NCBI GenBank assembly: GCA_965248835.1
Contig: CBDFLJ010000001.1
Location: 1,408,001-1,472,000, forward strand
DNA: 64,000 nt
Reading direction: 5' to 3'
Source of the DNA: Alphaproteobacteria bacterium
GTDB lineage: Bacteria; Pseudomonadota; Alphaproteobacteria; MPNO01
Numbering within the stretch: the first letter of the stretch is position 1; the number at the start of each line of letters is the position of its first letter. Position numbers and translations under genes: made by a program. Under the pieces are notes generated by a model. It was given only the letters and a program-made list of their open reading frames with translations. It was not told where the DNA came from and did no database searches. Positions 30,727 through 51,631 of this stretch are shown piece after piece.

Positions 30727-30752
30727 CGATTCCGCTCTCGTCCCGGTCGCGC

Positions 30753-31925: not shown

Positions 31926-32086
31926 GCAGGGGGCCTCCGTGGTCCGGCCGGGATGGTCACCGGCCGACCAGGCGGTGTCAAGGCCGGGCGATGTCTGATA
32001 TCCGTCCGAGCCAGGTCGGCGACGGCGGTTGATCGCCGAGGCTGTGGGCGCTATCACCGGGGCTAGACCGAACGGGAGGCGAGACG

Positions 32087-33133: not shown

Positions 33134-33147
33134 CGGCGGCAGCGGCG

Positions 33148-33480: not shown

Positions 33481-34486
33481 GCCGGCGGTGCCGATCCCGG
33501 TCAACGTGCTGACCGGCTTCCTCGGCAGCGGCAAGACGACGCTGCTGCGGCGCATGCTGGCCGCTCCGGGCATGGGCGAGACCGCGGTGCTAATCAACGA
33601 GTTCGGCGAGGTCGGTCTCGACCATCACCTGATCGAGCACGCGACCGAGAGCACGCTGGTGCTGGAGAACGGCTGCGTGTGCTGCGCCATGCGCGGTGAT
33701 CTGCAGGCCGCCCTGCGCGACCTGCTGTCGCGCCGCGACCGCGGCCAGGTGCCGTATTTCCGGAAGGTCGTCATCGAGACCTCGGGCCTCGCCGATCCGG
33801 TGCCGATCATCTACACCGTGACCGCCGAGCCGGTCATCCGGCACCATTTCCGTATCGGCTCGGTTCTGACGGTCGTCGATGCGGTGAACGGGGCGGCACA
33901 GCTCGACCGGTTCCCGGAATCGGTCAAGCAAGTCGCGGTCGCCGACCGCATCCTTGTCACCAAAACCGACCTTGCGGGCCAAGAGCGGGGGCCGTCCTTG
34001 CGGGCGGTGCTGGGCCGGATCAATTCGGCCTGCGAGATCATCGATTGCACCGAGGTGTTGCCGGCAATCGAGGATCTGCTGGCCGATGGGGCGGCGGTGC
34101 GAGAGTGGGTGAACGGGGCGGCGGCGGCCGATCACGCCCATGCAAGCGGGGTCAGCTCATTCACGATGTGGTTCGACGGCGCGCTCGATTGGACGGCCTT
34201 CGGCATCTGGCTCACCATGCTGCTCAACCGCCACGGCGAGGCGGTGCTCCGCGTCAAGGGCATGCTCAACGTGGCGGGGGTGGCCGATCCCGTGCTGATC
34301 AACGGCGTCCAGCACCTTGTGCACCCGCCGGCCCACCTTGCAAGCTGGCCGGACGAAGACCGGCGCTCGCGGATCGTCTTCATCGTCCGCGATATCGACG
34401 AGGCGCGGATCAGACGATCGCTGGAAGCGTTCAACGCGCTGGCCGCCCGGCGGCCGGGCGATCGGGCTGCTATGCCGGAGGGTTAG
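33473..34486 (+). CDS. COG0523 (CobW/ZigA-like) metallochaperone GTPase
   Basis: TGFLGSGKTT, NEFGEVGLD, GCVCC, IETSGLADP, TKTD and CobW_C (LRVKG, GVQH, SRIVFI). Confidence 0.93.
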   Translation: MAEPAVPIPVNVLTGFLGSGKTTLLRRMLAAPGMGETAVLINEFGEVGLDHHLIEHATESTLVLENGCVCCAMRGDLQAALRDLLSRRDRGQVPYFRKVVIETSGLADPVPIIYTVTAEPVIRHHFRIGSVLTVVDAVNGAAQLDRFPESVKQVAVADRILVTKTDLAGQERGPSLRAVLGRINSACEIIDCTEVLPAIEDLLADGAAVREWVNGAAAADHAHASGVSSFTMWFDGALDWTAFGIWLTMLLNRHGEAVLRVKGMLNVAGVADPVLINGVQHLVHPPAHLASWPDEDRRSRIVFIVRDIDEARIRRSLEAFNALAARRPGDRAAMPEG

Positions 34487-35003
34487 CCCGCCCGCCGTTG
34501 TCCCGCAGGCGGCCGTGGCTCGGGCGCCAGCCGGTGCGGAAGGCGCCTACCAATCGATGCAGCAAATAGAACGCGATCGCCAGTAGAATCAGGACGATGA
34601 TCTTCAGGACCAGCCCGCCGAAGATCGGGTCCAGCGTGGCGCCCCGGCTGATCAGGTGCTCGATCAGCATCACCAGCGCCTGCAGGGTCGCGCCGGCGCA
34701 GACGATCACCGCGATCAGGATGGCGATCTGCAGCGTATCGAAGACCAGGCCCTCGGCCCCGAGATCGCCGGTCGCGCGGACGATGTTGTGGCGAAGCGAC
34801 TGCCAGTGGGCGATCACATAGCCGATCAGCCCGACCACGGCAGCGAACCAGAACACGATGTTGGAGGCCCGGACGTCGTCGACGCCGCCGGCGATGAAGG
34901 CCTCAAACGGCTGGTAGAAATAGAGGAACACCAGCACCACCACCAGCCCGGCGGGGACGATCCACAAAAACGGTCTTCTGGGTGAATCGGTGTCGGTGCT
35001 CAT
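34470..35003 (-). CDS. Hypothetical ~4-TM membrane protein (paralog of 47967..48428)
   Basis: Four hydrophobic segments. Motifs FLYFYQPF, FW, HW and AGATLQA are shared with the 47967 ORF. Confidence 0.7.
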   Translation of the reverse strand: MSTDTDSPRRPFLWIVPAGLVVVLVFLYFYQPFEAFIAGGVDDVRASNIVFWFAAVVGLIGYVIAHWQSLRHNIVRATGDLGAEGLVFDTLQIAILIAVIVCAGATLQALVMLIEHLISRGATLDPIFGGLVLKIIVLILLAIAFYLLHRLVGAFRTGWRPSHGRLRDNGGRANPPA

Positions 35004-35080
35004 TGCCCGGCCGGGTCGTCGCCTCGATGACGTCAGCCTATACCAACGCACCCCGCCGCGTCGACCGGCGGACTCCGTTG

Positions 35081-35099
35081 ACCACCTGTGACAGGTGGT
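35081..35099. promoter_or_regulatory. Perfect palindrome, candidate operator
   Basis: ACCACCTGT-G-ACAGGTGGT in a divergent intergenic region, overlapping TTGACC at 35078. Confidence 0.6.
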
Positions 35100-35163
35100 A
35101 GATCATTGAAAGCGAGGCGAAGAACCGGTGATCGGGCCGAAAACGGCGTCTTTGGAACGGGTC

Positions 35164-37221
35164 ATGACAGCGCGTCTTGGTATCGATGTCGGCGGCACTT
35201 TCACCGATCTGTTGCTGTTCGACGACGATTCGGGCGCGATGCACTTCCTCAAGACGCCGTCCACGCCGCACGATCAGTCGATCGGCATCCTGACCGGAAT
35301 CGAGAAGATCCTCGCGGAGTCCGGCATGGCGCCGGCGGACATCCGCGGGCTGCTCCACGGCACCACGGTCTCGACCAATATCGTCCTGGAAGAAAAGGGC
35401 GCGAAGGTCGGCCTGCTGGTGACCGAGAACTTCGAACAGGTCCTCCACCTCGCCCGGTCGCAGACGCCGGGACCGCTTGCGGGCTGGATCACCATGATCA
35501 AGCCCGAGCCGCTGGCCGATCTGGCGCTGACCCGCGGCATCGCCGAGCGGATCAACGCCCGCGGCCAGGTTCTCAAGCCGCTGGAGGAGGAAAGCGCCCG
35601 CGCGGCGGTCCGCGAATTGATCGATCAGGGCGTGGAATCGATCACCATCTCGCTGTTGCACTCCTACGCCAATCCGAGCCACGAGCAGCGCCTGAAAGCG
35701 ATTGCGGAGAGCTTCGACGCGGGACTCCCGCTGTCGCTGTCCTCGGAGATCCTGCCCGAGTTCCGCGAGTACGAGCGCACATTGGTCACGGTCATGAACG
35801 CCTATGTCGGACCCAGCATGCGGAACTATCTGCGGCAGTTCGAAGACAAGCTGCGCGGCATCGCGTTCTCGCCCAAGGTCAACATCGTGCGCTCCGACGG
35901 CGGGCTGATGAGCGTTGCCCGCGCCTCGGAATCGCCGGTGCACACGATGCTGTCCGGGCCGGCGGGCGGAGTCTCCGGAGCTGCGTTCGTCTCGACGATC
36001 GCCGGCCAGACCGATGCGCTGGGCTTCGACATGGGCGGCACGTCGACCGACGTCTCGCTGATCCAGAACGGCCGGCCGACGATCTCGCGCCAGACCACGC
36101 TCGGCTACTATCCGGTCAAGGTGCCCTCGGTCGAGGTCCACAGCGTCGGCGCCGGCGGCGGCTCGATCGCCCATGTGCCGATGACCGGCGCGCTGCGCGT
36201 CGGGCCGGAGAGCGCCGGCGCGGTGCCGGGTCCGGCCTGCTATGGGCGCGGCGGCACCGAGCCCACGGTGACCGATGCCAACGTCGTCCTCGGACGGCTG
36301 CCGCCGATGCTGCTGGGCGGGGAGATGAGACTCGACGTCAACGCCGCCGAGGAGGCGGTCACCAAGGTCGCCCGCGCTCTCGGGCTCGATCCGCTGCAGG
36401 CGGCCCAGGGCATCCTCGACATCGTCAACGAGAACATGTTCGGCGCCCTTCGCCTGGTCACCGTGCAGAAGGGTTTCGACCCGCGCGATTTTGCGCTGGT
36501 CGCCTTCGGCGGGGCGGGTCCGCTGCACGGCAACGCGATCGCCATGCTGGCCGGGTGCTATCCGGTCATTGTGCCGGCCACGCCCGGCGTGCTGTCCGCG
36601 TTGGGCTTTCTGTATTCCGACGTGAAGAACGAGTTCGCCCAGACCTTCATCCGCAACATCGTCGATGCGCAACCCGGCGAGGTCGCCGAGGTGCTCGGCC
36701 GTCTCGGCGGCGAGGCGCGCGGATGGCTGGCCGAGGAGGGTGTGCCGCCGGACGGCCAGGACGTCCATTTCGAGGTCGACGTCCGGTATTTCCGCCAGGG
36801 CTACGAGGTCTCGCTCGAGGTCGCGCCCGACGGGCTCGGCGCCGAGGCGCTGGCCGACATCGGCCGCCGGTTCGGCGCCGTGCACGAGCGGCTCTACGGG
36901 TTCAAGCTGGAGACGCTGGTCGAGCTGGTCAATCTGCGCGCGGTCGGCGTCGGCCGCGTGCCGAAGGTCGATATCCCGCGCTTCGAACACGAGGGCGAGG
37001 ACGCATCGGCCGCCGTCGTCGACCAGCACCGGGTCTATATCGACAACGGCTTCGTCGCGTCGAAGATCTACGACCGCATCCTGCTCCGAGCGGGCAACGT
37101 CATCGCCGGCCCGGCCGTGGTCCAGCAGAAGGATTCAACGACGTTGATCCACCCCGGCCATGTCGGCGTAGTCGATGCGTTTCTGAACATCGTCATTCGT
37201 CCCGAGGCGATGAATGCGTAG
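35164..37221 (+). CDS. Hydantoinase A / 5-oxoprolinase ATP-binding subunit
   Basis: GIDVGGTFTD, HGTT, EFREYER, LSGPAGG, DMGGTSTDV, GAGGGSIA, GPESAGA.PGPACY and FGGAGPLH. Confidence 0.94.
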   Translation: MTARLGIDVGGTFTDLLLFDDDSGAMHFLKTPSTPHDQSIGILTGIEKILAESGMAPADIRGLLHGTTVSTNIVLEEKGAKVGLLVTENFEQVLHLARSQTPGPLAGWITMIKPEPLADLALTRGIAERINARGQVLKPLEEESARAAVRELIDQGVESITISLLHSYANPSHEQRLKAIAESFDAGLPLSLSSEILPEFREYERTLVTVMNAYVGPSMRNYLRQFEDKLRGIAFSPKVNIVRSDGGLMSVARASESPVHTMLSGPAGGVSGAAFVSTIAGQTDALGFDMGGTSTDVSLIQNGRPTISRQTTLGYYPVKVPSVEVHSVGAGGGSIAHVPMTGALRVGPESAGAVPGPACYGRGGTEPTVTDANVVLGRLPPMLLGGEMRLDVNAAEEAVTKVARALGLDPLQAAQGILDIVNENMFGALRLVTVQKGFDPRDFALVAFGGAGPLHGNAIAMLAGCYPVIVPATPGVLSALGFLYSDVKNEFAQTFIRNIVDAQPGEVAEVLGRLGGEARGWLAEEGVPPDGQDVHFEVDVRYFRQGYEVSLEVAPDGLGAEALADIGRRFGAVHERLYGFKLETLVELVNLRAVGVGRVPKVDIPRFEHEGEDASAAVVDQHRVYIDNGFVASKIYDRILLRAGNVIAGPAVVQQKDSTTLIHPGHVGVVDAFLNIVIRPEAMNA

Positions 37222-37241
37222 ATCAAGGAGATCCTTCCGCG

Positions 37242-39542
37242 ATGACTGAGACATGGCGCACCGCCGGGTCGGTTTCGTTCGACGAGCTGTTGAAGGCCAA
37301 CAAGAAACAGTTCGATGAGGTCTTCTCGGTCCAGATGAAGGCGTTCGGGCTGCGCGAAGCTTCCGGCCTGCCGCCGACCGCGGACGCCCTCGGCTCGGCG
37401 AGCCTGGAGGCGAGCAACGGCGCGCCGAACGGCGAGGCGACGGCCAGGCTCAATGCCCGTTTCGGGACGGGCTGGTCGAGCGAGATCGTCGAACACAGCA
37501 TCGACCAGGGCAAGGTCAGCGTGTTGTGCAAGCTCGTGGTCGAGGGTACGACCAGGATGCAGTTCGGCTCGGCCCGGGTGAACGGCGATGCGGGCGCTGC
37601 GCTGCAGCGCGCGACCGAAGAAGCCCTCGAAAAATGCGCCGCTCAGTTCGACGCCGTCCTATCGGCTCTCGAAGGCGAAGACCGCGCGCCGGTGCCGGCC
37701 GAGCCCGCCGAGCCCGCCGCGGCCGCCTCACCGGCGCCGGCGGCAGCGCGGCGCGGCACGGGATCGCGGCTGGATACGATCACGCTGGATCTGATCGAGA
37801 ACGCGCTGCGCAACGCGCGCCACGAGATGGATGCGGTGCTGTTCCGCTCCGCCATGTCGCCGGTCATCCGCGAGCAGCATGACGAGTTCCCGATGCTGAC
37901 CGACGCCAAGGGGCGGATGATCGTCGGCCAGTTCGGCTCCTACGTCCCGGAGATGCTGAAGGAACAGAGCTTCGACCTCTTTCCGGGCGACGTGATCCTG
38001 CAAAGCGATCCGTACAAATGCGGCGGCGCGATCAGCCACATCAACGACTGGATGGTCCTGGTCCCGATCTTCTTCGACGGTGATCTGGTCGGATTCAGCT
38101 CCATGTTCGGCCACATGATGGATGTCGGCGGCCCGGTGCCGGGCAGCATGCCGACCGCCGCGACCTCGATCTTCGGCGAGGGGCTCAGGATTCCGCCGAT
38201 CAAGATCTACGAGCGCGGCGAGGTGAACAAATCCGCGATCGATCTGATCATGAACAACACCCGCACGCCGGAGATGAACTACTCCGACCTGATGGCGATC
38301 GTCGCCGGCTGCCGTGCCGGCGAGCGCCGGGTGGTCGAGATGTGCGAACGCTTCGGCCAGGAGGTCTACAAGCAGGCCTGCGAGGCGTTGCTCGAGCGCA
38401 CCAACCGGGCGATGCGCCAACTCATCGTCCGCAACCTGCCCGAGGAGCCTCAGTCGTTCGAGGACTATGTCGACGACGATGGGCTCGGCAACGGGCCCTT
38501 CAGGATGAAGCTCACCGTCTGGCGTGAAGGGGAGCATGCCTATTTCGACTGGACCGGCACCTCGGCGCAGGCGCCGGGCCCGATCAACTTCTACCTCCAT
38601 GACGGCATGTTCAAGATGTTCATCGGCGTCTACATGATCATGGTCTTCGACCCCCAGATCCTGTTCAACGACGGGTTCTATGACCTGATCCACGTCACGA
38701 TTCCGGACGGCTCGCTGCTGCATCCGAAGTTCCCGGCGGCGCTGGGCTGCCGCACCCACGCTCTGTCGCGCCAGTTCGACGTCCTGGGCGGGGCGCTTTC
38801 GAAGAACGCGCCGGAGATGGCGACCGCGGCCGGCTACGGCTCCAGCCCGCATTTCCTCTATTCCGGGCGCGACGCCAAGGGACGGGACTTCCAGCTCATG
38901 GAGATCCTCTATGGCGGCATCCCGGGGCGCCCGATCGGCGACGGTATGGACGGCCATTCGTGGTGGCCGCTGTTCGAGAACATCCCCAGCGAGTATCTCG
39001 AGAGCTACTACCCGATGGTGATCGAATCCTATGCCAGCGTTCCCGACTCGGGCGGGGCCGGGCTGCACCGCGGCGGCAATGGCATCGAGAAGGTCTATCT
39101 GCTTCTGGAAGGCGGCGAGATTTCCATCCACGACGACCGCCATTTGACCCAGCCGTGGGGGATCCTGGGCGGCAAGCCGGGCGCGTGCTCGCAGAAATGG
39201 CTGGTCCGGGCCGACGGCACGCGCGAGCCGCTGCCATCGAAGATCGACAACGTGCGGGTGCAGGGCGGCGACCGCATCGTGTTCCGCACCGCCGGCGGCG
39301 GAGGTTGGGGCGACCCGCTGGACCGCGCGCCCGAGAAGATCGCTACCGACGTGCGGCGCAAGCTGCTTACGCGCGAGGCGGCGCGCGAGCGCTACGGCGT
39401 GGTCCTGGGCGAGCGGGGCACGTCCGATATCAAGGCGACCGAGGCGTTGCGCGCAAGCCTGCGCTCCAGCCGCCGGCCGCCGGAGACGTTCGACTTCGGC
39501 GACCGCCCCGAAGGAATCGCGAACGGGGTGATCACCGTTTGA
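37242..39542 (+). CDS. Hydantoinase B / oxoprolinase subunit with a ~175-aa N-terminal extension (Rad52/22-like domain + Pro/Ala linker)
   Basis: AAGGAG RBS. Core motifs SPVIREQHD, DPY..GG.SHIND, GHMMDVGG.VPGS, EGLRIPP, DSGGAG.HRGG and GGGGWGDPL. The core begins at about residue 177. Confidence 0.92.
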   Translation: MTETWRTAGSVSFDELLKANKKQFDEVFSVQMKAFGLREASGLPPTADALGSASLEASNGAPNGEATARLNARFGTGWSSEIVEHSIDQGKVSVLCKLVVEGTTRMQFGSARVNGDAGAALQRATEEALEKCAAQFDAVLSALEGEDRAPVPAEPAEPAAAASPAPAAARRGTGSRLDTITLDLIENALRNARHEMDAVLFRSAMSPVIREQHDEFPMLTDAKGRMIVGQFGSYVPEMLKEQSFDLFPGDVILQSDPYKCGGAISHINDWMVLVPIFFDGDLVGFSSMFGHMMDVGGPVPGSMPTAATSIFGEGLRIPPIKIYERGEVNKSAIDLIMNNTRTPEMNYSDLMAIVAGCRAGERRVVEMCERFGQEVYKQACEALLERTNRAMRQLIVRNLPEEPQSFEDYVDDDGLGNGPFRMKLTVWREGEHAYFDWTGTSAQAPGPINFYLHDGMFKMFIGVYMIMVFDPQILFNDGFYDLIHVTIPDGSLLHPKFPAALGCRTHALSRQFDVLGGALSKNAPEMATAAGYGSSPHFLYSGRDAKGRDFQLMEILYGGIPGRPIGDGMDGHSWWPLFENIPSEYLESYYPMVIESYASVPDSGGAGLHRGGNGIEKVYLLLEGGEISIHDDRHLTQPWGILGGKPGACSQKWLVRADGTREPLPSKIDNVRVQGGDRIVFRTAGGGGWGDPLDRAPEKIATDVRRKLLTREAARERYGVVLGERGTSDIKATEALRASLRSSRRPPETFDFGDRPEGIANGVITV

Positions 39543-39573
39543 GGGCGCGCCTGAGCAGGGAGCTGGGAAGACC

Positions 39574-42066
39574 ATGCTGGAGTCCGTAATCATCGCACTC
39601 GTCGTCGCGGTCGTCGTCATCGCGATCGTCTATATCCTGTCGGTGTGGATCTACAAGCGCGCGCCGGCGAACATGGGCTTCGTGCGCACCGGGATGCTCG
39701 GCACCAAGGTGTGCCTGGGCCGCGGTGCGATCGTCCTGCCGGTCTTTCACGAGGTCACGTGGGTCTCGCTGGAGACGATCAAGCTGATCGTCAGCCGCGC
39801 GCGCGAGCAGGCCGTTCTGACCTCCGACAAGATCCGGATCGACGTCGTGGCCGAGCTCTACGCCCATGTCGGCCGGACTCCCGAGGATCTGCTGACCGCG
39901 AGCCGGAGCCTGGGGGAAAAGACATTCGATCCCGACAAGGTCCGCAACCTCCTGGAGGCCAAGGTCGTCAGCGTGTTGAGGAGCTATGCCGCCACCAAGA
40001 CGCTCAGCGAGCTGCACGAGAACCGCGAGGCCATCTCGCGCGAGATGAAGGCCGCGGTCATGGAGAGCTTCCAGGCCAACGGGCTGACGCTCGAGGAAGT
40101 CACGATCGCGGCCCTGGAACAGACCGCGAAGGAGCATTTCAAGCCCGACAACGTCTTCGATGCCGAGGGCCTGAAAATCATCACCGACATCACCTCGGAT
40201 GCCCGCCGCAAGGTCCACGAGACCGAAAAGCGGACCGCGGTCGCGATCCGCCAGCGCGACCTCGACACCCAGCTCGATCTCCTGGAGATCGAAAAGAACG
40301 AAGCGCTCGCCAAGGCGGGTCAGGACAAGACGATCTCCAACGAACAGGCCCAGCAGCTTCGCGAGAAGCAGATCTTCATCCTCGACCAACGCAAGGCGGT
40401 TGAGGAGCGCGAGATCGAGAACGACGTTACCCTGGAGCGCATGCGGACCGACCGCGAGGTCGCGATCACCGAGGAGGCGCAAAAGCGCGAGGTGACCGAG
40501 ATCCAAAAGGAGCTTGCGCTGGAGCAGGAACGCAAGGACCGCGAGATCCAGCTCATCAACAAGGAACGCGAGCGCGAGGCGGCCGAGATCCAGCAGCGCA
40601 CCGCCGTGCTGGCCGAACAGGAGGTCGCCCGCGTGCTGCGCCACCAGGCGAGCGAGGACGCCACCGTCGCCACCCGCAAGCAGAGCGTCGAGGCGCGGCT
40701 GACCGTCCTCGATCTCGAAAAGCAGGAGGAGCTCGCCGCGGCCGGGCAGGAGCGCGACGTCGCCAACGAGAAGGCCCGCGCGCTCAGCGAGCGCCAGCGC
40801 TACATCCTGGAACAGCGCTGGGAGGTCCAGCAGGACGAGATCGACAAGGCCCTGGCACTCGACCGCGCGCAGATCCAGAAAGACGCGGCGGTGGCCGAAG
40901 AGAGCAAGATCCTGGAGGCCGCCGAGGTCCGCCGCGCGCTCGCGCTCGAGCTTGAGGAACGCGACCGCGAGATCGCCCTGATCAGGAAGGAGCAGGAACG
41001 CGAGAAGATCGACATCCAGCGGTTCCTGGGACGCGAGAGGGAGGAGCGCGACCGCGAGATCGCCCTTGTCCGCAAGACCGGAGAGCTCGAGGCGGTCGAG
41101 GTCGAGCGGCTGAAAACGACCGCAGAGAAGGAAAACGCCGAGCACGGCGTGGAGTCGGTGCGCATCCTCGCCGATGCCGAGCGGGACAAGGCGATCGAGC
41201 GCATCGAGGCCGAGAAGCTTGCCGAGGTCCGTCGGATCGACGAGGAGAACAAGGCGCAGATCTCGCGTATGCACATGATCACCCAGGCCGAGGCCCGGCA
41301 GACCTCGGCCGAGCGCGAGGCCGAGGCCACGCTGATCAAGGCGCGCGCCAACAGCGATGCGCAGAAGGTCGCGGCCGAGGGCATCGAGAAGGAGGCCGCG
41401 GCCCCGGGCCGCGCCGAGATGGCGGTCGAATCGCTGCGGGTGGAGAACACCCAGCGCATGCTCGAAGCCGAAGCGACCGGCATCGAGGCCAAGGCCGATG
41501 CGCTCAAGAAGTACAACGAGGCTGCGACCTTCCTGGAGCTGGCCAAGATGTATATCGAGGCCGAGCGCGATGTTCATATCGACCAGGCCAAGGCGATGGG
41601 CACCGCGCTCGGTGGCGCGCAGATCCGCATGTACGGCGGCGGCGACGGCACGGTGGAGACGATCCGCGGCATGTTCACCTCCGGCTTCGGCCTGGGCGAG
41701 GCGCTTGAGGGGCTTGGCCAGTCGATGCCCGAGGGGCTGCGCGAGCGGCTGTCCGCGCAGGGCCTCCGCGGCCTCCTCGGCCTGGCGCCGGGCGAGGCAA
41801 AGCCCGATGTCGAACGGACGCTGCAAAAGACCGTCCAACGGCTCGATGCACTGGCCGCCAAGTCGCTGCGCGGCCAGAAGGCGCGCGCGATGCCGCTGTC
41901 CGAAGCGCTCGCCAAGCTCGAACAGCAGGCCAGCGGCGACGACGAAGCGATTCGGGCCGTCAACACGCTCAAGGGCATGAACCCCGAAGGCGCCTTCGAT
42001 GACCTGCCTTTCGACAAGGTGTGGGCGCTGCTTCAGAGCGTGGCGCAGGCGCCCAGCCAGGCTTGA
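39574..42066 (+). CDS. Flotillin-family SPFH protein with an extended, duplicated coiled coil
   Basis: N-terminal TM, YKRA....FVRTG..G.KV...GAIVLPVFHE, D.IR.DV.AE, LEQT....F...N.FDAEGL (bacterial flotillin/YqiK-like), then a long E/R/A-rich coiled coil. Confidence 0.88.
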   Translation: MLESVIIALVVAVVVIAIVYILSVWIYKRAPANMGFVRTGMLGTKVCLGRGAIVLPVFHEVTWVSLETIKLIVSRAREQAVLTSDKIRIDVVAELYAHVGRTPEDLLTASRSLGEKTFDPDKVRNLLEAKVVSVLRSYAATKTLSELHENREAISREMKAAVMESFQANGLTLEEVTIAALEQTAKEHFKPDNVFDAEGLKIITDITSDARRKVHETEKRTAVAIRQRDLDTQLDLLEIEKNEALAKAGQDKTISNEQAQQLREKQIFILDQRKAVEEREIENDVTLERMRTDREVAITEEAQKREVTEIQKELALEQERKDREIQLINKEREREAAEIQQRTAVLAEQEVARVLRHQASEDATVATRKQSVEARLTVLDLEKQEELAAAGQERDVANEKARALSERQRYILEQRWEVQQDEIDKALALDRAQIQKDAAVAEESKILEAAEVRRALALELEERDREIALIRKEQEREKIDIQRFLGREREERDREIALVRKTGELEAVEVERLKTTAEKENAEHGVESVRILADAERDKAIERIEAEKLAEVRRIDEENKAQISRMHMITQAEARQTSAEREAEATLIKARANSDAQKVAAEGIEKEAAAPGRAEMAVESLRVENTQRMLEAEATGIEAKADALKKYNEAATFLELAKMYIEAERDVHIDQAKAMGTALGGAQIRMYGGGDGTVETIRGMFTSGFGLGEALEGLGQSMPEGLRERLSAQGLRGLLGLAPGEAKPDVERTLQKTVQRLDALAAKSLRGQKARAMPLSEALAKLEQQASGDDEAIRAVNTLKGMNPEGAFDDLPFDKVWALLQSVAQAPSQA
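40201..41034 (+). repeat. Internal tandem duplication in the flotillin, period 142 aa (426 bp)
   Basis: AGQ at residues 248/390, ILDQR/ILEQR at 269/411 and DREIQLINKE/DREIALIRKE at 322/464. A third DREIALVRK follows at 493. Confidence 0.75.
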
Positions 42067-42078
42067 GGCGGGGCTGCG

Positions 42079-43164: not shown

Positions 43165-43226
43165 GGCTTCGGTGCGGCCCGGCTTGCCGGGGACATGCGC
43201 CAGACCCCGCACGGTCCGAAATCCGT

Positions 43227-44054: not shown

Positions 44055-44055
44055 C

Positions 44056-45036
44056 TCAGAGCTCCTTGCGGATGTTGACCACGCGCAGGATCATCACCAC
44101 GCCGATCATCATCGCCAGCATCAGCATGATCGCGTTGACCGCGGCGAAGGGATAGTTGGCGATGGCATAGTAGTTGAGGATCACGGTGCCGGTGGTCGAT
44201 GTCTTGCCGCCATAGACCACCACGGCGGTTGCGAACTCGCCCATGATCATCACGAAGATGAAGATCAGCCCGATGGCGACGCCCGGCAGGGACAGGGGGC
44301 CGATGATCTCGCGAAAGATCTGGAACGAGCTCGCGCCCATGTCGCGCGCGGCATCGATGATCGACCTGTCGATCTTGGCCAGCGAGAAGAAGATCGGCCC
44401 GACGATCAGGACGACATAGAGTTGGACCAGGGCCATGGTGTAGCCGAATTCCGAATAGAGCAGGAAGCCGACCGGTTTGTCGACGATGTCGAGATTGACC
44501 AGCAGCTTGTTGAGCAGCCCGCGTCGGCCCAGCATCGGCAGCCAGGCCACCGCGCGGATCAGGTAGCTGGTCCAGAACGGCACCATCGAGATCAGGAACA
44601 GCGCGAGCTGCCACTTGAACGACTCGACCTGGAAGGCGAGGAAATAGGCGATCGGGAAACCGACGATCAGGCAGAAGAACATCACCACCAGCGCGAAGCG
44701 CAGCGTCGTTCCGAGCGTCTGGATATAGATCGAAAGGGACAGGAACCGGTCCGAGGATGGATCGAAGAAACCCTCGGTCCGGAAGAAGTCGTCGTAGTGC
44801 TGGAGCGTCAGGTCGGGCGCCATGCCATAGCCGGTCGCCTTCCAGAAACTGAACACCACGATTCCGACCAGCGGCAGGACCAGAAAGAGGATCAGCCACG
44901 CCGCGGCCGGGCTGATCAGCCAATAGACCGGAAACCCCTGCGCGCGGCGCGGCTTGTCCGACCCGGCACGCTGGGCGGCCGGTGCCGCGCGGCCGCCGAT
45001 CAGGCCCGGGCGCGCCGTCTGTCCGAGCTGGCTCAC
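44056..45036 (-). CDS. ABC permease (PotB-like)
   Basis: PFWTSYLIR..W..LG..G and the EAA loop IIDAARDMGAS...PLSLPG. Confidence 0.92.
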   Translation of the reverse strand: MSQLGQTARPGLIGGRAAPAAQRAGSDKPRRAQGFPVYWLISPAAAWLILFLVLPLVGIVVFSFWKATGYGMAPDLTLQHYDDFFRTEGFFDPSSDRFLSLSIYIQTLGTTLRFALVVMFFCLIVGFPIAYFLAFQVESFKWQLALFLISMVPFWTSYLIRAVAWLPMLGRRGLLNKLLVNLDIVDKPVGFLLYSEFGYTMALVQLYVVLIVGPIFFSLAKIDRSIIDAARDMGASSFQIFREIIGPLSLPGVAIGLIFIFVMIMGEFATAVVVYGGKTSTTGTVILNYYAIANYPFAAVNAIMLMLAMMIGVVMILRVVNIRKEL

Positions 45037-45059
45037 GGTGTTGGCGGCCGGTCAGGAAT

Positions 45060-45088
45060 GCGGGCGGGCCCGCGACGATCCCGCCCGC
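45060..45088 (-). terminator. Intercistronic hairpin after the substrate-binding protein gene
   Basis: GCGGGCGGG-N11-CCCGCCCGC between the binding-protein stop and the permease start. Confidence 0.5.
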
Positions 45089-45104
45089 GCGCACCGGTCT
45101 GCCG

Positions 45105-46385
45105 TCAAGCGCTGAGGAACTCCGTCCAGCGCTTGACCAAGTAGTCGTTCTCCTTCATCAGCGAGTTCCAGACCGCGATGTTCTTGAAGCGGTTCCAATA
45201 GGAGCCGCCGTCGCGGACCTCGCCCTTCTCGACGATCGGCGTGCCGAAGGGGTCGTTGAGCTCTCCTGCCGCCGGTTTGCCCATGTACCAGAAGTCCCAT
45301 TCCTCCGGCGTGAGGTGCTGCTTGACGTTTTCCGGCACCGACATGTAGTAGCCCTGACGGGCGACGAACGCGCCGGGCCAGCCGCTCATCCACCAGTTGA
45401 TATAGTCATAGGCCGCATCGAGCTTCTTGCCGGTCACCTTGGCCGAGATCGCAAGCCCGCCGTGCCAGCCGCGCATGCCTTCCTTGGGGAAGGCGTAGAC
45501 GCAGGGCACGCCCTCGGCCTTGACTGCGGTGACCGCCGGCGACCACATCGACTGGACCGCGACCTCGCCGGAGACCATCAGGTTGACCGACTGGCCGAAG
45601 GTCTCCCAGAAGGCGCGGAAATGGCCCTCTTTCTTGCGCTTGATCAGGAAATCGATCAGGAAGTCGATTTCCTCGCGGGTCATGTCGCCCTTGTCCTTGA
45701 ATTTGAGCAGCCCCATCGCCTCGATGGCGAGCGCTGCATCCATGGTGCCGATCTGCGGCACGTTGAGCAGCGCGACCTTGCCCTTGAAGTCCGCGGAGAA
45801 CAGCTCGGCCCAGCTTTCGATCTTGCGGCCGGTCTCGTCCGGGTTGTAGCCGATCGAATCGGCGTTGTGCCAGCCGGGTACCATCGAGATGTAGCGCGAC
45901 GGCCCGTTGACCCGGTTGCCGTCCTTGTCGAGCCAGAGATGGCGGAACGGCGCATCGCCCTGGCCGGGATTGGACTCCGGCGTCAGCCGGCCGGTCTTTG
46001 TAAGGTCGGTGACCTTGTCCCAGTCCTTGATGCGCTGCGTGTCGATCGGCTGCCACACCTTGGCAGGGATGAACACGTCGCAGTCGTTGTAATAACCTTC
46101 GGCGATCTCGTACTGATCGTTCTGGTTGAGCATCTTGCCGAACATCGCGCCATAGCCCAGCGCCTGGCCGCGCACCTGCATGCCGAGATCCTTGCCGGCG
46201 CGGCCCTGAATCTCGTTGATGATGCTCACGCCGAGGCCGATCGTCCGGATGGACTCGGCGCCAAACGCAATGCTGGGAAAGCCGCCTGCCGCGCCCGCGG
46301 CGAGCGCCGCGGCGGACGTGCCGACGAATGTGCGGCGCCTCACGCGCCGGGGTTTGCTGATGTCCGTCTTGAGCTTGTCCGACAT
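45105..46385 (-). CDS. ABC substrate-binding protein (PotD/PotF-like) with a Tat signal
   Basis: GGAGG RBS, twin-arginine RRTFVG..AAALAAG, SWAELF...FKGKVAL and PKEG.RGW. Confidence 0.88.
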   Translation of the reverse strand: MSDKLKTDISKPRRVRRRTFVGTSAAALAAGAAGGFPSIAFGAESIRTIGLGVSIINEIQGRAGKDLGMQVRGQALGYGAMFGKMLNQNDQYEIAEGYYNDCDVFIPAKVWQPIDTQRIKDWDKVTDLTKTGRLTPESNPGQGDAPFRHLWLDKDGNRVNGPSRYISMVPGWHNADSIGYNPDETGRKIESWAELFSADFKGKVALLNVPQIGTMDAALAIEAMGLLKFKDKGDMTREEIDFLIDFLIKRKKEGHFRAFWETFGQSVNLMVSGEVAVQSMWSPAVTAVKAEGVPCVYAFPKEGMRGWHGGLAISAKVTGKKLDAAYDYINWWMSGWPGAFVARQGYYMSVPENVKQHLTPEEWDFWYMGKPAAGELNDPFGTPIVEKGEVRDGGSYWNRFKNIAVWNSLMKENDYLVKRWTEFLSA

Positions 46386-46486
46386 TTGAGCCTCCATCTT
46401 ATCCGAGACGATTAGGACATTTTCTGAACCCTCTGACAATATGGGCCGGCAAAAAGGATTTTGGGAAAGCGGCCTGGGAGGTGCGG

Positions 46487-47920
46487 GTGAGCGTATTGAT
46501 CAAGGGCGGCAGGATCGTCACCGCAGCCGATGACTACCATGCCGACATCTTCGCGGCCGACGCCACGGTGAGCCTGATCGGCACCGACCTGACGATTGAG
46601 GCCGATGAGGTGATCGATGCGGCGGGGAAGCTGGTCATCCCGGGCGGCGTCGATCCGCACACCCATCTCGAGCTTCCCTTCGGCGGCACGACGACCTCGG
46701 ACACCTTCGAGTCCGGCACCCGGGCGGCGGCGTTCGGCGGCACGACCTGCATCGTCGACTTCGCCGTCCAGTCGCGCGGTATTTCAATGCTGGAATCGCT
46801 CGATAGCTGGCATGCCAAGGCCGCCGGCAAGACCGCGATCGACTACGGCTTCCACATGATCGTTACCGACCTGCCCGAGGAGCGGGTGCCGGAGATGCGC
46901 CGCCTGTCGGACGAGGGGATCACCAGCTACAAGCTGTTCATGGCCTATCCCGGGGCGCTGCTGTCCGATGACGGGACGATCTTCCGGGCGATGCGCAAGG
47001 CCGGCCAGGACGGCACCCTGGTCTGCATGCACGCCGAGAACGGCATCGTGATCGACGAGCTGATCAGGATCGCGCTGGCCGAGGGCCATATCGAGCCCAA
47101 ATACCACGCGGTCACGCGTCCGACCCGGCTGGAGGCCGAAGGCACTCACCGCGCGCTCGCGATCGCCGAGGTCGCACGCGCGCCGGTCTATATCGTCCAC
47201 CTCAGCGCCTTTGACGCGCTCAAGGAACTGCGCGATGCCCAGGCACGCGGCGTGATGGCCCACGCCGAGACCTGCCCGCAATACCTGCTGCTGGACGTCG
47301 GCGCCTATGACGAGCCCGGCTTCGACGGCGCGAAATACGTGCTGACCCCGCCGCTGCGCGAGAAATGGAACCAGGACGAGCTGTGGCGCGGACTGCGGAG
47401 CGGCGATCTGCACGTGATCTCGACCGACCATTGCCCGTTCTGCCTCAAGGAGCAGAAGGAGCTGGGCCTGGACGATTTCTCCAAGATCCCCAACGGCGGG
47501 CCGGGCATCGAGAACCGGATGAGCCTGATCTATCACAACGGCGTCGGCGAGGGCCGGATCACCCTCAACAAGTTTGTCGAGCTGACCTCGACCGCGCCGG
47601 CCAGGATCTTCGGACTGTTCCCGCGCAAGGGCACCATCGCGGTGGGCTCGGACGCCGATATCGTCATCTTCGATCCCGACCGGTCGGAGACCATCAGCGT
47701 CCACAACCCGCGGACCCACCACATGAACATCGACTACAGCGCCTACGAAGGCTTCACGGTCAAGGGCTATACCGAGACCGTGATCTCACGCGGCAAGATC
47801 ATCGTCGACAAGGGCGCGTATGTCGGCCGGCCGGGCGATGGGATGTTCATCAAGCGCGGCCCCTATGGCGGGCTCTACGCCGCGCAGACCTCGCGCGCCG
47901 CGCGCGAGCGCTCCGCCTGA
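46487..47920 (+). CDS. hydA: Dihydropyrimidinase / D-hydantoinase
   Basis: PGGVDPHTH, AAFGGTT, SYKLFMAY, HAENG, YIVH, ETCPQY, TDHCPF, IPNG.PG.E and GSDAD. Confidence 0.95.
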   Translation: MSVLIKGGRIVTAADDYHADIFAADATVSLIGTDLTIEADEVIDAAGKLVIPGGVDPHTHLELPFGGTTTSDTFESGTRAAAFGGTTCIVDFAVQSRGISMLESLDSWHAKAAGKTAIDYGFHMIVTDLPEERVPEMRRLSDEGITSYKLFMAYPGALLSDDGTIFRAMRKAGQDGTLVCMHAENGIVIDELIRIALAEGHIEPKYHAVTRPTRLEAEGTHRALAIAEVARAPVYIVHLSAFDALKELRDAQARGVMAHAETCPQYLLLDVGAYDEPGFDGAKYVLTPPLREKWNQDELWRGLRSGDLHVISTDHCPFCLKEQKELGLDDFSKIPNGGPGIENRMSLIYHNGVGEGRITLNKFVELTSTAPARIFGLFPRKGTIAVGSDADIVIFDPDRSETISVHNPRTHHMNIDYSAYEGFTVKGYTETVISRGKIIVDKGAYVGRPGDGMFIKRGPYGGLYAAQTSRAARERSA

Positions 47921-47966
47921 AGGTCGCTGGCGCCGGCATCGATATCCGGCGCAACCCGGCCGGCGC

Positions 47967-48428
47967 TCAGGCGGAGGCCAGGCGGACCAGCTTCAGGAGC
48001 CAGAAGATAACGCAGAAGATCCCGGTCAGGACCACCAGCAGAACCACCGCGCCGAGGCGGTCGCCGAACCCCGCGCTGAGCACCGCGCCGTCGCGCAGCA
48101 GATAGACGCACAGGATCTGCACCGCCTGCAAGGCGGCGCCCGCGCTCAGCAGGATCGCCACGAACACCGAGCCTTGCAGCGAGCTCAGCACCATCGCCTC
48201 GATCGACCGCTGCCGGGTGATGTGCAGCCGGTAGGCCCGCCAGTGATAGCCGCAGAACCCGATCACCGCGATGACCAGCGCCGCCCAGAAGATGTCGTTG
48301 CCGTAGTCGATGCCGTTGAAGACCAGGCTGAACAGGTCCGCGAACGGTTTGTAAAAGAACAGAAAGATCAGGACGATGATGAAGACCAGGAACCCGACCA
48401 GCGTCCAGAACCATTGCCACCCTGTCAT
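47967..48428 (-). CDS. Hypothetical ~4-TM membrane protein (paralog of 34470..35003)
   Basis: FLFFYKPF, FW, HW and AGAALQA; hydrophobic throughout. Confidence 0.72.
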   Translation of the reverse strand: MTGWQWFWTLVGFLVFIIVLIFLFFYKPFADLFSLVFNGIDYGNDIFWAALVIAVIGFCGYHWRAYRLHITRQRSIEAMVLSSLQGSVFVAILLSAGAALQAVQILCVYLLRDGAVLSAGFGDRLGAVVLLVVLTGIFCVIFWLLKLVRLASA

Positions 48429-48488
48429 GTCGTCACCGCTGCGGGACCGCTTGTTGGGGCACCGTTTTACCCGATCGGCCGCACGCCG

Positions 48489-49535
48489 TCATTCGCCGGT
48501 TGCCGGCAGCGCGACCAGAAGAAGAACGCCGTAGAGCAGGAAGAATACGGCATCCTTGACCGCCGGCATCCCGTGGCGCGCCTGCGCGCGCGCGCTCAAG
48601 AGGACGGCAAGCTCCAGGATGAAGAACCCCAGCGACAGATAGAAGATCGGCCACAGGGTCTGCCACCACGAGATGCCGTCGGGCGTGGCCACGCCCTGGC
48701 TCGCGCGCCAGATTACCAGAAGGACCGGTGCGAGCGTGACATAGGCATAGCCCAGCAGGAACCGCATCCGCCCGGCGGTTCGATCGATGATCCAGAAGAC
48801 GACAAGCACGGCGAGGATCTGGACGGTGTCCCAGAACAGCGCGACGTATTTCCCGTCCGCGCCGGACTCCGCGAGGTTGACGAAGCCCAACACCAGCAGG
48901 AACGCCAGCCCGTCGCAGAACAACCATTCCCGGAACGATTCGGCGCTCTGCTTCCCTGCCTCGGCGCGCGAAGCCTTGTCGAGGATGAGCACGAGGATGA
49001 CCGCGAACGCACCCGGATAGGCGAGCGATAGCATCAGCCGGTATCGCTGGGCGCCGGCGACATAGGTCCAGTTCAGCAGCAGCAGGGCCGCGATCAGGAT
49101 CGCGATCCCGACCACGGGGACGAACAGCGAGGACCCGGTGCGCTCGGCCGCTTCCTGCGCCGGCGCGGCGACGGCGCCGGTGCGTGCGCGCATCCAGACG
49201 ACGACCAGGAATCCGAGGACCGCAAGCCCGGCGGCGATCAGCATGACGACGAAGAACGACGATGCGCCGGTCTGGGTACGCCAGGGGCCGCTTTTGCCCT
49301 CCCCGAGGGAGAGGGGATCGAGCTGCCAGACCAGCACCGCGCAGGCCACGACCAGCAGCGTAGCGGCCAGGATCATCGGGTAATGTGCCCCGACCGGATG
49401 CCGCGCCGGAACGTCCGGCGCAGCGCCGTCGGCCGCGCGGCCCCACCTGGCGACCGCCGCAATCACGAAGCAGACCAGCGCCAGGACGGCGATGCCGCCC
49501 ATTACCTCCAGGAAGGCGATCGAGCGGCTATCCAT
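48489..49535 (-). CDS. Hypothetical polytopic membrane protein (roughly 10 TM)
   Basis: Many hydrophobic helices with short loops. Directly downstream of the ureidopropionase-like gene. No family recognised. Confidence 0.7.
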   Translation of the reverse strand: MDSRSIAFLEVMGGIAVLALVCFVIAAVARWGRAADGAAPDVPARHPVGAHYPMILAATLLVVACAVLVWQLDPLSLGEGKSGPWRTQTGASSFFVVMLIAAGLAVLGFLVVVWMRARTGAVAAPAQEAAERTGSSLFVPVVGIAILIAALLLLNWTYVAGAQRYRLMLSLAYPGAFAVILVLILDKASRAEAGKQSAESFREWLFCDGLAFLLVLGFVNLAESGADGKYVALFWDTVQILAVLVVFWIIDRTAGRMRFLLGYAYVTLAPVLLVIWRASQGVATPDGISWWQTLWPIFYLSLGFFILELAVLLSARAQARHGMPAVKDAVFFLLYGVLLLVALPATGE

Positions 49536-49567
49536 CGCCGGACCGTGCTGAGGCCGGGTGTGCCGTC

Positions 49568-50431
49568 TCAGATTCGGACCAGAGGCTCATAGGTCTCCGG
49601 CCGCCGGTCACGATAGAACTGCCAGAGGTTGCGCACCTCGCGCACGACCTCGAGATCCATCTCGCAGGTGAGGACCTCGTCCCGGTCCTCGCTCGCCTGG
49701 GCGAGGATCCTGCCGCGCGGGTCGGCGAAGTAGCTGGCGCCGTAGAACCGGCCGATCTCCCACGGCGTCTCGGTGCCGATGCGGTTGACCGCGCCGACGA
49801 AATAGCCGTTGGCGACGGCGGCGGCGGGCTGTTCGAGCTCCCATAGATGGCGGCTCAGCCCGGCCACGGTGGCCGATGGGTTGACGACGTACTCCGCGCC
49901 CGCCAGGCCCAGCGCCCGCCAGCCTTCCGGGAAATGCCGGTCGTAGCAGATGTAGACCGCGAGCCGGCAAAAGGCGGTCTCGAACACCGGATAACCCGCG
50001 TTGCCGGGCTTGAAGAAGAATTTTTCGTAAAATCCCGCAACCTGCGGGATGTGGTGCTTGCGGTACTTGCCGAGGTATCGGCCGTCGGCGTCGATCACCG
50101 CGGCGGTGTTGTAATAGACCCCGGTGGTCTCCTCCTCGTAGATCGGCACGACGATGACCATGCCATGCGCCCTGGCCTGTTCCTGCATCAGCCGGACGGT
50201 CGGGCCGTCGGGGACGGGCTCGGCCGCGCCGTACCATCTGGTGTCCTGGCTGGGACAGAAATAGGGCTGGTTGAAGACCTCCTGCAGGCACAGCACCTGG
50301 ACGCCGCGGGCTGCGGCTTCGGCGATCAGCGGCAGGTGCGCCTCGTTCATGATGTCGCGGATCCGCTCCGGCGGCTCCTCGGTGCCGGCCTTGAGAGCCA
50401 TCTGGATCAGCCCGCCCTTGAGCATGCTCAT
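49568..50431 (-). CDS. Nitrilase-superfamily N-carbamoyl hydrolase (beta-ureidopropionase-like)
   Basis: CLQEVF, YYNTAAVIDADG, YRKHHIP, EKFFF.PG, ICYDRHFPEGWR, NPSATV and FYRDRRP. Confidence 0.9.
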   Translation of the reverse strand: MSMLKGGLIQMALKAGTEEPPERIRDIMNEAHLPLIAEAAARGVQVLCLQEVFNQPYFCPSQDTRWYGAAEPVPDGPTVRLMQEQARAHGMVIVVPIYEEETTGVYYNTAAVIDADGRYLGKYRKHHIPQVAGFYEKFFFKPGNAGYPVFETAFCRLAVYICYDRHFPEGWRALGLAGAEYVVNPSATVAGLSRHLWELEQPAAAVANGYFVGAVNRIGTETPWEIGRFYGASYFADPRGRILAQASEDRDEVLTCEMDLEVVREVRNLWQFYRDRRPETYEPLVRI

Positions 50432-50551
50432 GCCCGCCTCCCCCAATGCGCCGGCATCGCCTTGCGAGCGGTGTCATACCATCTGGCGGCGCCCGGCGAC
50501 AGGCGCGCAAGCCGCCCGCGATACCATGTCTCCCGCGTCACGCGATCCTGC

Positions 50552-51625: not shown

Positions 51626-51631
51626 CGATGG

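Follow-up and report, generated by a model that had tools for sequence, protein, structure and literature searches.

A giant flotillin gene lies between hydantoinase and transporter genes

Why should the gene of a giant flotillin lie between hydantoinase genes and the gene of a transporter ATPase? The clients and the purpose of most bacterial SPFH/flotillin proteins are obscure because their genes rarely adjoin anything informative. In a 64,000-nt stretch of an alphaproteobacterial genome (hereafter the window; ~68% G+C, on a 2.29-Mb contig of a genome flagged with 9.5% contamination), four + strand genes encode, in this order, the hydantoinase subunits HyuA and HyuB, an 830-aa flotillin and an ABC transporter ATPase. 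We found this order at every ortholog locus recovered, 19 of 19, from at least 11 alphaproteobacterial families. The explanation we favour, to which we give about an even chance, is that the SPFH protein would be a structural subunit, dedicated and co-transcribed, of a system that takes up cyclic amides (hydantoin-type) and opens their rings at the expense of ATP. The core genes and the elements within them are as follows.

35078-35106, +: sigma-70-like promoter match upstream of hyuA (consensus scan, weak)
35128-37221, +: HyuA, hydantoinase/oxoprolinase A subunit (PF01968 320 bits, PF05378 170 bits, PF19278)
37242-39542, +: HyuB, hydantoinase B subunit, 766 aa, with an N-terminal extension (PF02538 498 bits, from about residue 180)
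37275-37343, +: HyuB residues 12-34, conserved N-terminal amphipathic helix, a candidate docking peptide (alignments, AF2 model)
37434-37676, +: HyuB residues 65-145, Rad52-like alpha-beta-beta-beta-alpha domain (PF04098 24.5 bits, cut-off 20.3)
39574-42066, +: giant SPFH/flotillin-type protein, 830 aa (PF01145 58.6 bits, cut-off 23.6)
42079-43164, +: ABC transporter ATPase, PotA/MalK-type with TOBE domain (PF00005 120 bits)

Both hydantoinase subunit domains are thus present and adjacent. Because the hyuB start is placed at the ATG at 37242, which is preceded by aaggag, the gaps within the run are 20, 31 and 12 bp. A consensus scan, the one method applied here, found no terminator-like site in these gaps, and the single promoter-like site in 31500-51000, before hyuA, compares with 1.8 expected, which is weak evidence. 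A first-pass annotation of the window had described this run with its 12-31 bp gaps, together with the permeases, a binding protein with a Tat signal and the surrounding enzymes, and open reading frames (ORFs) and family matches confirmed all of them. The three unknown membrane proteins that it listed are also present, with one correction to their layout: just one lies upstream of hyuA, and it is divergent.

The four-gene core is invariant while its flanks shuffle

We collected relatives of the flotillin from a large protein collection (~920 at E <= 1e-20). The best 120 of these all scored above 1100 bits, and the named ones among them came from Alphaproteobacteria or Rhodospirillaceae metagenome-assembled genomes (MAGs). 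Of the 19 ortholog loci, two come from named MAG records and the other 17 from carriers, belonging to 11 families, that were called at E <= 1e-60 in a 400-genome sample of the class; the orthologs are 53-67% identical. Up to 20 kb around each locus was taken, and the 15 proteins of the window were mapped onto it by tblastn. The loci end at 20 kb or at contig ends, and several neighbour misses are contig or stretch ends. Further counts refer to a 340-genome subset of the class sample and to a 400-genome sample of the phylum; same-genus carriers are kin, and the counts are not independent.

HyuA was found upstream of the flotillin gene and the ABC ATPase directly downstream at 19/19 loci. HyuB was placed between HyuA and the flotillin by tblastn at 17/19, and at the remaining two it was recovered by ORF and alignment analysis. 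Such a recurrence of the four-gene order is far above chance. The neighbours of the core in the window, with their presence at the 19 loci, are listed below.

32087-33133, +: polysaccharide-deacetylase-fold (PuuE/HP0310-like) amidohydrolase (PF01522 61 bits); 15/19, 59-81% identity
33449-34486, +: CobW/ZigA-type metallochaperone GTPase (NCBIfam PRK11537 203 bits); 14/19
34470-35051, -: membrane protein with four transmembrane helices (4-TM), paralog a, divergent from hyuA (no Pfam/NCBIfam family); 17/19
43227-44054, -: ABC permease, PotC-like (PF00528); 17/19, 77-87% identity
44056-45036, -: ABC permease, PotB-like (PotB model 133 bits, below cut-off); 17/19
45105-46439, -: periplasmic solute-binding protein with twin-arginine signal (PF13416; RRRTFV, then an Ala-rich h-region); 16/19, 70-84% identity
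46481-47920, +: dihydropyrimidinase / D-hydantoinase (TIGR02033 601 bits, cut-off 393); 11/19, 73-85% identity
47967-48428, -: 4-TM membrane protein, paralog b, 153 aa (no Pfam/NCBIfam family); 12/19
48489-49535, -: multi-TM membrane protein, 348 aa (no known family); 8/19, 37-51% identity
49568-50446, -: CN-hydrolase, carbamoylase / beta-ureidopropionase-like (PF00795 209 bits); 1/19

The periphery of the cluster was inverted, interrupted or moved at L002, L048, L050-52, L055 and L061, and the four-gene core never was. At L002 (13950-20500) and L048 (12600-18700), additional genes lie between the ABC ATPase and permease genes, namely two AcnX genes, an AcnX swivel gene and genes for a luciferase-like monooxygenase and an old yellow enzyme (OYE)/2,4-dienoyl-reductase-like flavoenzyme; the flotillin-ATPase junction is intact in both.

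The reverse test gave the same picture. HyuA matches of 69-77% identity were all at flotillin loci, and the next class reached at most 54%. The 14 next-closest HyuAB loci (HyuA 47-54%) had no flotillin, no HyuB match that began before query residue 143, and none of the other cluster genes except one distantly related ABC transporter set. In addition, the 4-TM family was found in exactly the 17 flotillin carriers of the class sample, in two copies each, and in none of the other 383 genomes.

NfeD, the usual partner of bacterial flotillins, was not matched among the locus proteins (PF01957), as the first-pass annotation had stated. The sole PF01957 match of the genome (C1:1779023-1779184) is ~330 kb off, beside two stomatin-like genes, and an HflK/C-like pair sits on another contig. 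The annotation's central claim, a dedicated flotillin-associated cyclic-amide locus, stands because of the 19/19 order, the exact co-occurrence with the 4-TM family, the restriction of HyuA of at least 69% identity to flotillin loci, and the lack of NfeD. Close flotillin homologs do not mostly occur without these neighbours: all 19 keep hydantoinase A/B and the ABC ATPase. The annotation's further idea, a microdomain or cage in which import is coupled to ring opening, is a hypothesis. The evidence is comparative and the genomes are kin, but a pattern that holds over 11 families while the periphery is shuffled argues strongly for functional linkage.

Taken together, this is a co-inherited system with an invariant core of HyuA, extended HyuB, giant flotillin and ABC ATPase, whose constant companions are the two 4-TM paralogs. 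Usual companions are the permeases, the binding protein, the PuuE/HP0310-like amidohydrolase, CobW, the D-hydantoinase and the 348-aa protein, as well as a carbamoylsarcosine-amidase-like enzyme with a free copy of the HyuB module (described below) and, often, a second HyuAB pair.

The system is patchily distributed. The flotillin was present in 17/400 genomes of the class sample and in 0/400 of the phylum sample, and two same-genus genomes had no ortholog. Among 40 relatives searched, the sole match of ortholog strength was the source genome's own; nine others were 30-39% identical flotillins or weak partial matches. A same-genus complete genome (G002:C1:3545925-3548718, compared with window 43228-47897) is without the hyuAB, flotillin, ATPase and 4-TM genes. 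What remains there is the dihydropyrimidinase gene, joined to a PotB-like gene (DNA identity 85-87%); most of the binding-protein gene and of potC is deleted. The transport and flotillin part appears to have decayed, with the dihydropyrimidinase kept.

Two membrane protein families belong to the cluster

The 4-TM proteins a and b are paralogs (35% identity, E 9e-21). Neither Pfam nor NCBIfam has a family for them, and for the 153-aa paralog b the ESM Atlas yielded nothing usable. We considered whether they could be short forms of NfeD and rejected this, as PF01957 does not match them even at E <= 1 and an OB-fold would not fit into them. The 348-aa membrane protein likewise had no family in Pfam/NCBIfam and no usable ESM Atlas lead; at L103 and L140 its gene also adjoins the second HyuAB pair.

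The flotillin has a repeat-built helical region and its own C-terminal domain

By Pfam, the 830-aa protein is a member of the SPFH / Band 7 superfamily, with flotillin architecture: an N-terminal TM helix, an SPFH domain, a helix of ~490 aa made of 29-residue repeats and a C-terminal helical domain. The hydrophobic stretch at residues 4-26 precedes YKRAP, and from the established positive-inside rule we infer that the bulk of the protein would lie in the cytoplasm. The SPFH domain (PF01145) spans residues 38-181 and scores 47-52 bits in the orthologs.

The protein failed the test of equivalence to FloT (equivalog model NF058507: 19.6 bits vs a cut-off of 700). Generic flotillins of relatives are ~30-39% identical to it, and those alignments stop by query residue 613. 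AF2 modelled the C-terminal domain as a helical bundle at pLDDT 85-89, and the C-terminus ends in a conserved FDDVPFxxVW motif. Judged from the alignments, this domain is specific to the subfamily. The solved SPFH chains gave no sequence match at E <= 0.01 in a phmmer search, and a flotillin profile searched against solved structures returned stomatin alone, at E 0.19. The AF2 monomer model had a mean pLDDT of 59, with the SPFH region below 50 and helices over residues 194-680 at low confidence.

In an alignment of 30 orthologs, every large indel was a multiple of 29 columns (29, 58, 87, 116, 145), and the sequence autocorrelation was highest at lag 29, with smaller peaks at lags 11 and 18. 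Because of these 29-multiples and the lag-29 peak, the helical wall seems length-quantised, that is, composed of 29-residue units whose number varies by species; ortholog lengths range from 822 to 1023 aa.

HyuB carries a helix and a Rad52-like domain at its N-terminus

Against the caprolactamase models, HyuA scored 518 bits (CapA, alpha subunit; cut-off 1000) and HyuB 254 (CapB; cut-off 1000), and both were far below the cut-offs of the acetophenone carboxylase (Apc) models. The closest solved relative of HyuB is N-methylhydantoinase 7hk5 (252 bits over residues 176-736). Solved N-methylhydantoinase and caprolactamase align to HyuB only from residue 176, leaving an extension of ~178 aa that consists of a conserved helix, a variable linker, a Rad52-like domain of ~80 residues and a Pro/Ala linker.

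The helix carries the motif S-(L/F)-D-D-L-L-K-x-N-K-x-Q-F-D-x-x-F, which we found in 19/19 HyuB. The Rad52-like domain is present in all of them but L045 and L061 (17/19). From a 17-row alignment, AF2 modelled the helix (13-34) at pLDDT ~80 and the alpha-beta-beta-beta-alpha domain (65-145) at pLDDT above 90. The Pfam assignment to PF04098 (Rad52_Rad22) is borderline family-wide, since it passes the 20.3-bit cut-off with 24.5 bits in the window and with 20.3 bits in L053, and L050, L058 and L059 have no match. With Foldseek, the top structural matches were human RAD52 and yeast Mgm101 (root-mean-square deviation, rmsd, 2.0 A, 71 columns). In a second structure search (VIA), yeast Rad52 came first (Z 8.5, rmsd 2.1 A, 74 residues). 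The alpha-beta3-alpha fold alone is not specific, because dsRBD and HPF folds came within 1 Z of yeast Rad52.

The extension is a lasting property of HyuB at these loci. Four loci (L050-52, L061) retained it on a HyuAB core that is only 37-45% identical to that of the window, and when it was searched for among near-length proteins, 71/71 matches were HyuB, of 527-792 aa. A complex prediction of flotillin residues 630-830 with HyuB 1-175 returned ipSAE 0.00 twice, which is no answer and speaks neither for nor against binding.

Some further observations concern HyuB. In the metagenome protein P0233, a histidine-kinase ATPase domain is attached to the helix and linker of the HyuB N-terminus; it is probably a chimeric assembly or a frameshift and not a real fusion. 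Many flotillin genomes (L103 in G113, L104 in G339, L140, L144) have a second HyuAB pair within 10-20 kb of the cluster, whose HyuA is 39-51% identical. At L140, the genes run from an isochorismatase-family gene through free module, HyuA2, HyuB2 and 348-aa protein to 4-TM b, and HyuB2 (728 aa, PF02538 at 7-536) ends in an unexplained C-terminal tail of ~190 aa.

The same module occurs as a separate protein beside an amidase-like enzyme

With a profile of the extension, we searched 1.84 billion representatives and obtained 792 proteins at E <= 0.001. These comprise fragments, genuine SSAP (single-strand annealing protein)-like proteins and stand-alone proteins of 150-195 aa, which share the helix motif, the linker and the Rad52-like domain with the HyuB extension. 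A metagenome scan with seven stand-alone module sequences then gave 13 loci.

Upstream sequence was readable at 11 of these loci, and at all 11 the free-module gene follows an isochorismatase-family gene. The gap between the two is 2-11 nt in nine of them and ~280 nt in L134, and in L135 the genes overlap, as they do by 8 nt in genome G339. The isochorismatase-family enzyme is closest to solved N-carbamoylsarcosine amidohydrolases (26st, 219 bits; 1nba, 141 bits). At 9/13 loci, the amidase/free-module pair immediately adjoins the stretch of the flotillin cluster that holds the deacetylase, CobW, 4-TM and HyuA genes. We detected the module, whether fused or free, in 15/340 genomes of the class subset; all 15 carry the flotillin, and the other 325 have none.

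The source genome also encodes a free module and its amidase (L147 7412-11269; G000:C1:42411-46268), followed on the same strand by genes for a luciferase-like monooxygenase and a fumarylacetoacetate-hydrolase-family protein. A gene for a pyruvate-carboxylase-like biotin enzyme lies near this free module on the opposite strand.

The importer and the enzymes point to a cyclic amide

The ABC ATPase scored 347 bits against the PotA model (cut-off 482), and the permeases and the binding protein were also below their models (PotC 120 vs 326, PotB 133 vs 348, PotD 28 vs 582). The importer has PotABCD architecture and probably a different substrate. Its ATPase gene is detached from its own permease genes and fixed right behind the flotillin gene (19/19), an arrangement that fits co-assembly of the gene products.

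The deacetylase-fold enzyme (32087-33133) had as its best solved relative 3qbu/4ly4 (491 bits over 291 residues), compared with 55 bits for the allantoinase PuuE. The entry 3qbu/4ly4 is a Helicobacter pylori protein deposited as 'peptidoglycan deacetylase'. Because this highly conserved family here keeps constant company with hydantoinases and CobW, our data suggest that it may act on cyclic amides or ureides and not on peptidoglycan. The CN-hydrolase scored 238 bits against the N-carbamoylputrescine amidase model, below its cut-off of 410. The first-pass annotation had counted this ureidopropionase-like enzyme as a part of the system; it is present in the window and fails as a conserved neighbour, with one occurrence in the 19 fetched stretches.

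The annotation had also proposed hydantoins or dihydropyrimidines as the substrate. A cyclic amide agrees with our results, and 'dihydropyrimidine' specifically is less well supported. Because HyuB is closest to N-methylhydantoinase and its partner enzyme to N-carbamoylsarcosine amidase, we infer that the substrate would be better framed as an N-substituted hydantoin or another cyclic amide. A plain reductive pyrimidine pathway was rejected: Pfam scans of the ORFs in 19042-56466 showed no dihydropyrimidine dehydrogenase, and the dihydropyrimidinase is found at 11/19 loci.

A proposed scaffold for uptake and ring opening, and its alternatives

How could these parts work together? According to the reading that we favour, a single N-terminal TM helix would anchor the flotillin, most of which would lie in the cytoplasm. 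As with other SPFH proteins, its oligomer would be a ring or dome attached to the membrane, with a wall built of the 29-residue helical repeats. Flotillins form closed barrels or domes on membranes according to the parts consulted of reports on eukaryotic structures (10.1101/2024.05.09.593390, PMC13000311). The assembly may gather the binding-protein-dependent ABC importer, the two 4-TM paralogs and the 348-aa membrane protein, the latter three standing in for the usual NfeD partner. Soluble HyuAB would be held at this site through the HyuB extension, with its helix, its flexible Pro/Ala linker and its Rad52-like domain, which is probably ring- or oligomer-forming. In many genomes, the N-carbamoylsarcosine-amidase-like hydrolase could be recruited by the same module in the form of a separate small protein. 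Because the helix and Rad52-like module would hold consecutive enzymes there, the imported substrate may be opened in an ATP-dependent step and then decarbamoylated at its point of entry.

Several points weigh against this reading. Contact, localisation and co-transcription are predictions, and the evidence for linkage is comparative throughout. The carrier genomes are kin, and the patchiness of the cluster is what one would expect of an island that is transferred or easily lost; the linkage could therefore partly reflect co-transfer. The oligomeric state and the orientation of the flotillin are predictions as well, because the full-length model reaches only the mean pLDDT of 59, and ring formation by the Rad52-like domain is a guess from homology to Rad52, because its fold is common. 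In the source genome, the free module and the amidase lie 1.36 Mb from the flotillin. The dihydropyrimidinase, the 348-aa protein and the CN-hydrolase are inconstant neighbours (11, 8 and 1 of 19).

This linkage supplies a defined and genetically tractable set of candidate clients, with which one could test how such a scaffold or cage chooses and arranges what it holds and whether metabolism can be channelled at the membrane by SPFH assemblies. Three components are new: the family of 4-TM paralogs, the 348-aa protein, and the module of helix and Rad52-like domain in its fused and free forms. Hypotheses are gained for three protein families without an assigned function and for a Rad52-like domain used outside DNA metabolism, along with a possible way to tether enzymes to membranes in engineered pathways.

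The most serious alternative, unlikely on balance in our estimate, is that the flotillin serves the membrane parts only, in the stabilisation, assembly or quality control of the permeases, the 4-TM proteins and the 348-aa protein, and that HyuAB is unbound. The HyuB extension would then be an independent device for oligomerisation or regulation that joins HyuAB and the carbamoyl-amidase in a soluble metabolon. The same linkage data apply to this explanation, the flotillin gene does adjoin the transporter ATPase gene, and the distant position of the module in the source genome suits it. Known bacterial flotillins are also reported to stabilise membrane proteins, in the part of PMC11222466 consulted. 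What it leaves hard to explain, if the extension and the flotillin are unconnected, is the confinement of the module to flotillin genomes (15/15 among 340) and the keeping of the extension when the HyuAB core was swapped for a 42-45% identical version.

A bolder form of the scaffold reading, which we regard as speculative and rather improbable, makes the flotillin dome a nanocompartment on the cytoplasmic face that encloses the inner face of the ABC importer, with the hydantoinase and the carbamoyl-amidase inside. Wall height would be set in 29-residue steps, the 4-TM paralogs would replace NfeD, and the helix plus Rad52-derived ring domain would be the cargo module, built into the enzyme or delivered as an adaptor whose translation is coupled to it. 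If true, this would be the first SPFH 'organelle' for catabolism and the first cargo-targeting signal for an SPFH cage, with the Rad52 fold co-opted outside nucleic-acid metabolism.

We give little credence to the idea that the SPFH, 4-TM and 348-aa proteins form a stress or repair device that shields the membrane against the substrate or what is made from it and has no part in organising catalysis. Links of SPFH proteins to envelope-stress systems such as PspA are described in the parts consulted of PMC8581546 and PMC13713150, and the membrane partners are without a recognisable transport or enzyme family. However, Pfam scans of the locus proteins showed no PspA/Vipp1 or stress regulator, and the flotillin gene shares its run with the enzyme pair and the transporter ATPase, with the unknown membrane genes on the other strand.

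Slightly less credible still is hitch-hiking, in which a general-purpose flotillin rides on a mobile or easily lost catabolic island and the linkage reflects descent and co-transfer. The patchy spread described above agrees with it, including the single ortholog-strength match among the 40 relatives, the absence from the phylum sample and from two same-genus genomes, and the same-genus genome with remnants only. Yet the flotillin gene always lies between hyuB and the ATPase gene across the 19 loci and at least 11 families while the flanks shuffle, and the genome has other SPFH proteins for general roles (the HflK/C-like pair and a stomatin-like pair with NfeD). The subfamily-specific C-terminal domain, beyond the residue at which generic flotillin matches end, and the perfect co-occurrence with three other lineage-specific parts also speak against it.

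Finally, it is very improbable that the Rad52-like module binds nucleic acid, for example to autoregulate the operon mRNA, with an indirect link to the flotillin: it has the Pfam Rad52_Rad22 match and its structural neighbours (Rad52, Mgm101, dsRBD, HPF) are all nucleic-acid binders, but the domain is linker-fused to one metabolic enzyme or translationally coupled to another, is missing in 2/19 HyuB that retain the N-terminal helix, and has no DNA- or RNA-related gene with it at the locus.

Comparison with known systems

In layout, the protein resembles the bacterial flotillins of the SPFH2 group (FloT/YuaG, YqiK and the giant SPFH2), which in the sources consulted in part have an N-terminal anchor, an SPFH/Band_7 domain and a long helical region. 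'Giant SPFH2' proteins of 800-1000 aa, which reach this size through an expanded coiled coil, were noted by Hinderhofer et al. 2009 (PMC2636767), and the same passages describe an NfeD partner as typical of SPFH1, SPFH2 and SPFH5 operons. Those passages, its additional files being outside our scope, give no hydantoinase-type gene context for giant SPFH2. Unlike FloT and YqiK, the present flotillin is without an NfeD operon partner, scores far below the FloT cut-off, has its own C-terminal domain and lies in a catabolic operon.

A flotillin fixed within a conserved gene cluster has its closest precedent, from the passages of PMC10308929 consulted, in the flotillin-associated rhodopsin (FAR) cluster of SAR11, HIMB59 and Pseudothioglobus. 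It is described there as conserved and patchy, ~26 kb long and found in aquatic bacteria, with transporters and enzymes for nitrogen compounds (among them a PxpA-like 5-oxoprolinase subunit, carboxylases and a formamidase), and with a flotillin of 659 aa (1,977 bp) paired with rhodopsin (PMC10308929). Unlike the present locus, the FAR cluster as described in those passages is without HyuAB, ABC ATPase adjacency, 4-TM paralogs and a Rad52-like module. Searches of published work that joins flotillin/SPFH with hydantoinase found none, and with oxoprolinase only the FAR paper was relevant; the supplements of PMC2636767 and PMC10308929 were outside the scope of these searches. We accordingly found no description in print of a flotillin-hydantoinase system.

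An SPFH scaffold with dedicated clients is already known in kind. In HflK/C-FtsH and stomatin-NfeD, an SPFH cage is dedicated to one client that is encoded or regulated together with it, and the gene arrangement suggests the same kind of dedication here. Both of those are protease assemblies; here, a transporter and soluble catabolic enzymes would take the role of client, and the orientation would be cytoplasmic. The partners, 4-TM paralogs and a Rad52-like module, are unrelated to those of both systems.

In the route of creatinine degradation, N-carbamoylsarcosine amidase acts directly after the ATP-hydrolysing N-methylhydantoinase. The present enzymes run parallel to it, with HyuB nearest the one and the module-linked amidase nearest the other, below equivalog level in either case. 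The difference lies in the N-terminal extension of HyuB, which the solved N-methylhydantoinases do not have, because their match starts at HyuB residue 176. To our knowledge, no membrane scaffold is known in this route.

The cargo-loading peptides of encapsulins and the encapsulation peptides of bacterial microcompartments (BMCs) are short terminal helices on flexible linkers. The module may work like them, in the sense of analogy only, as a helix and linker on different enzymes of one pathway found only with the scaffold gene. Here, in contrast, the scaffold would be a membrane SPFH protein, there is an extra Rad52-like domain, the module is also a separate polypeptide, and loading is a conjecture from the genes. 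No HK97-fold or BMC-domain shell protein family of Pfam was found among the locus proteins. With the ring-forming Rad52/Mgm101 annealing proteins the module shares the PF04098 match and the best structural matches, and its profile reaches genuine SSAP-like proteins. Unlike them, it has only the ~80-residue core, is tied to metabolic enzymes and has no recombination genes nearby.

Regulatory elements and neighbouring genes

The divergent promoter regions contained no convincing operators or inverted repeats. No Rfam family was matched in 30000-52000, and six locus proteins examined against PADLOC gave no defence family. Among the sequencing runs listed for 37000-43300, four runs of one study, of DNA or unknown type, contain this interval, and none is an RNA run. 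Downstream of the cluster, ORF listing and family scans identified the following.

50552-52129, -: purK and purE

Upstream of the cluster, 26376-32057 (-) encodes an M20 amidohydrolase (TIGR01891, 368 bits) together with a gamma-glutamyltranspeptidase, an Amidohydro_3 enzyme and a D-serine-dehydratase-like protein, and further upstream lies a TctA transporter gene at 24427-26382 (+). The genes in 24427-32057 make up a wider neighbourhood of amide and amino-acid catabolism, which is found at 87-89% DNA identity in same-genus genomes, at a different chromosomal place.

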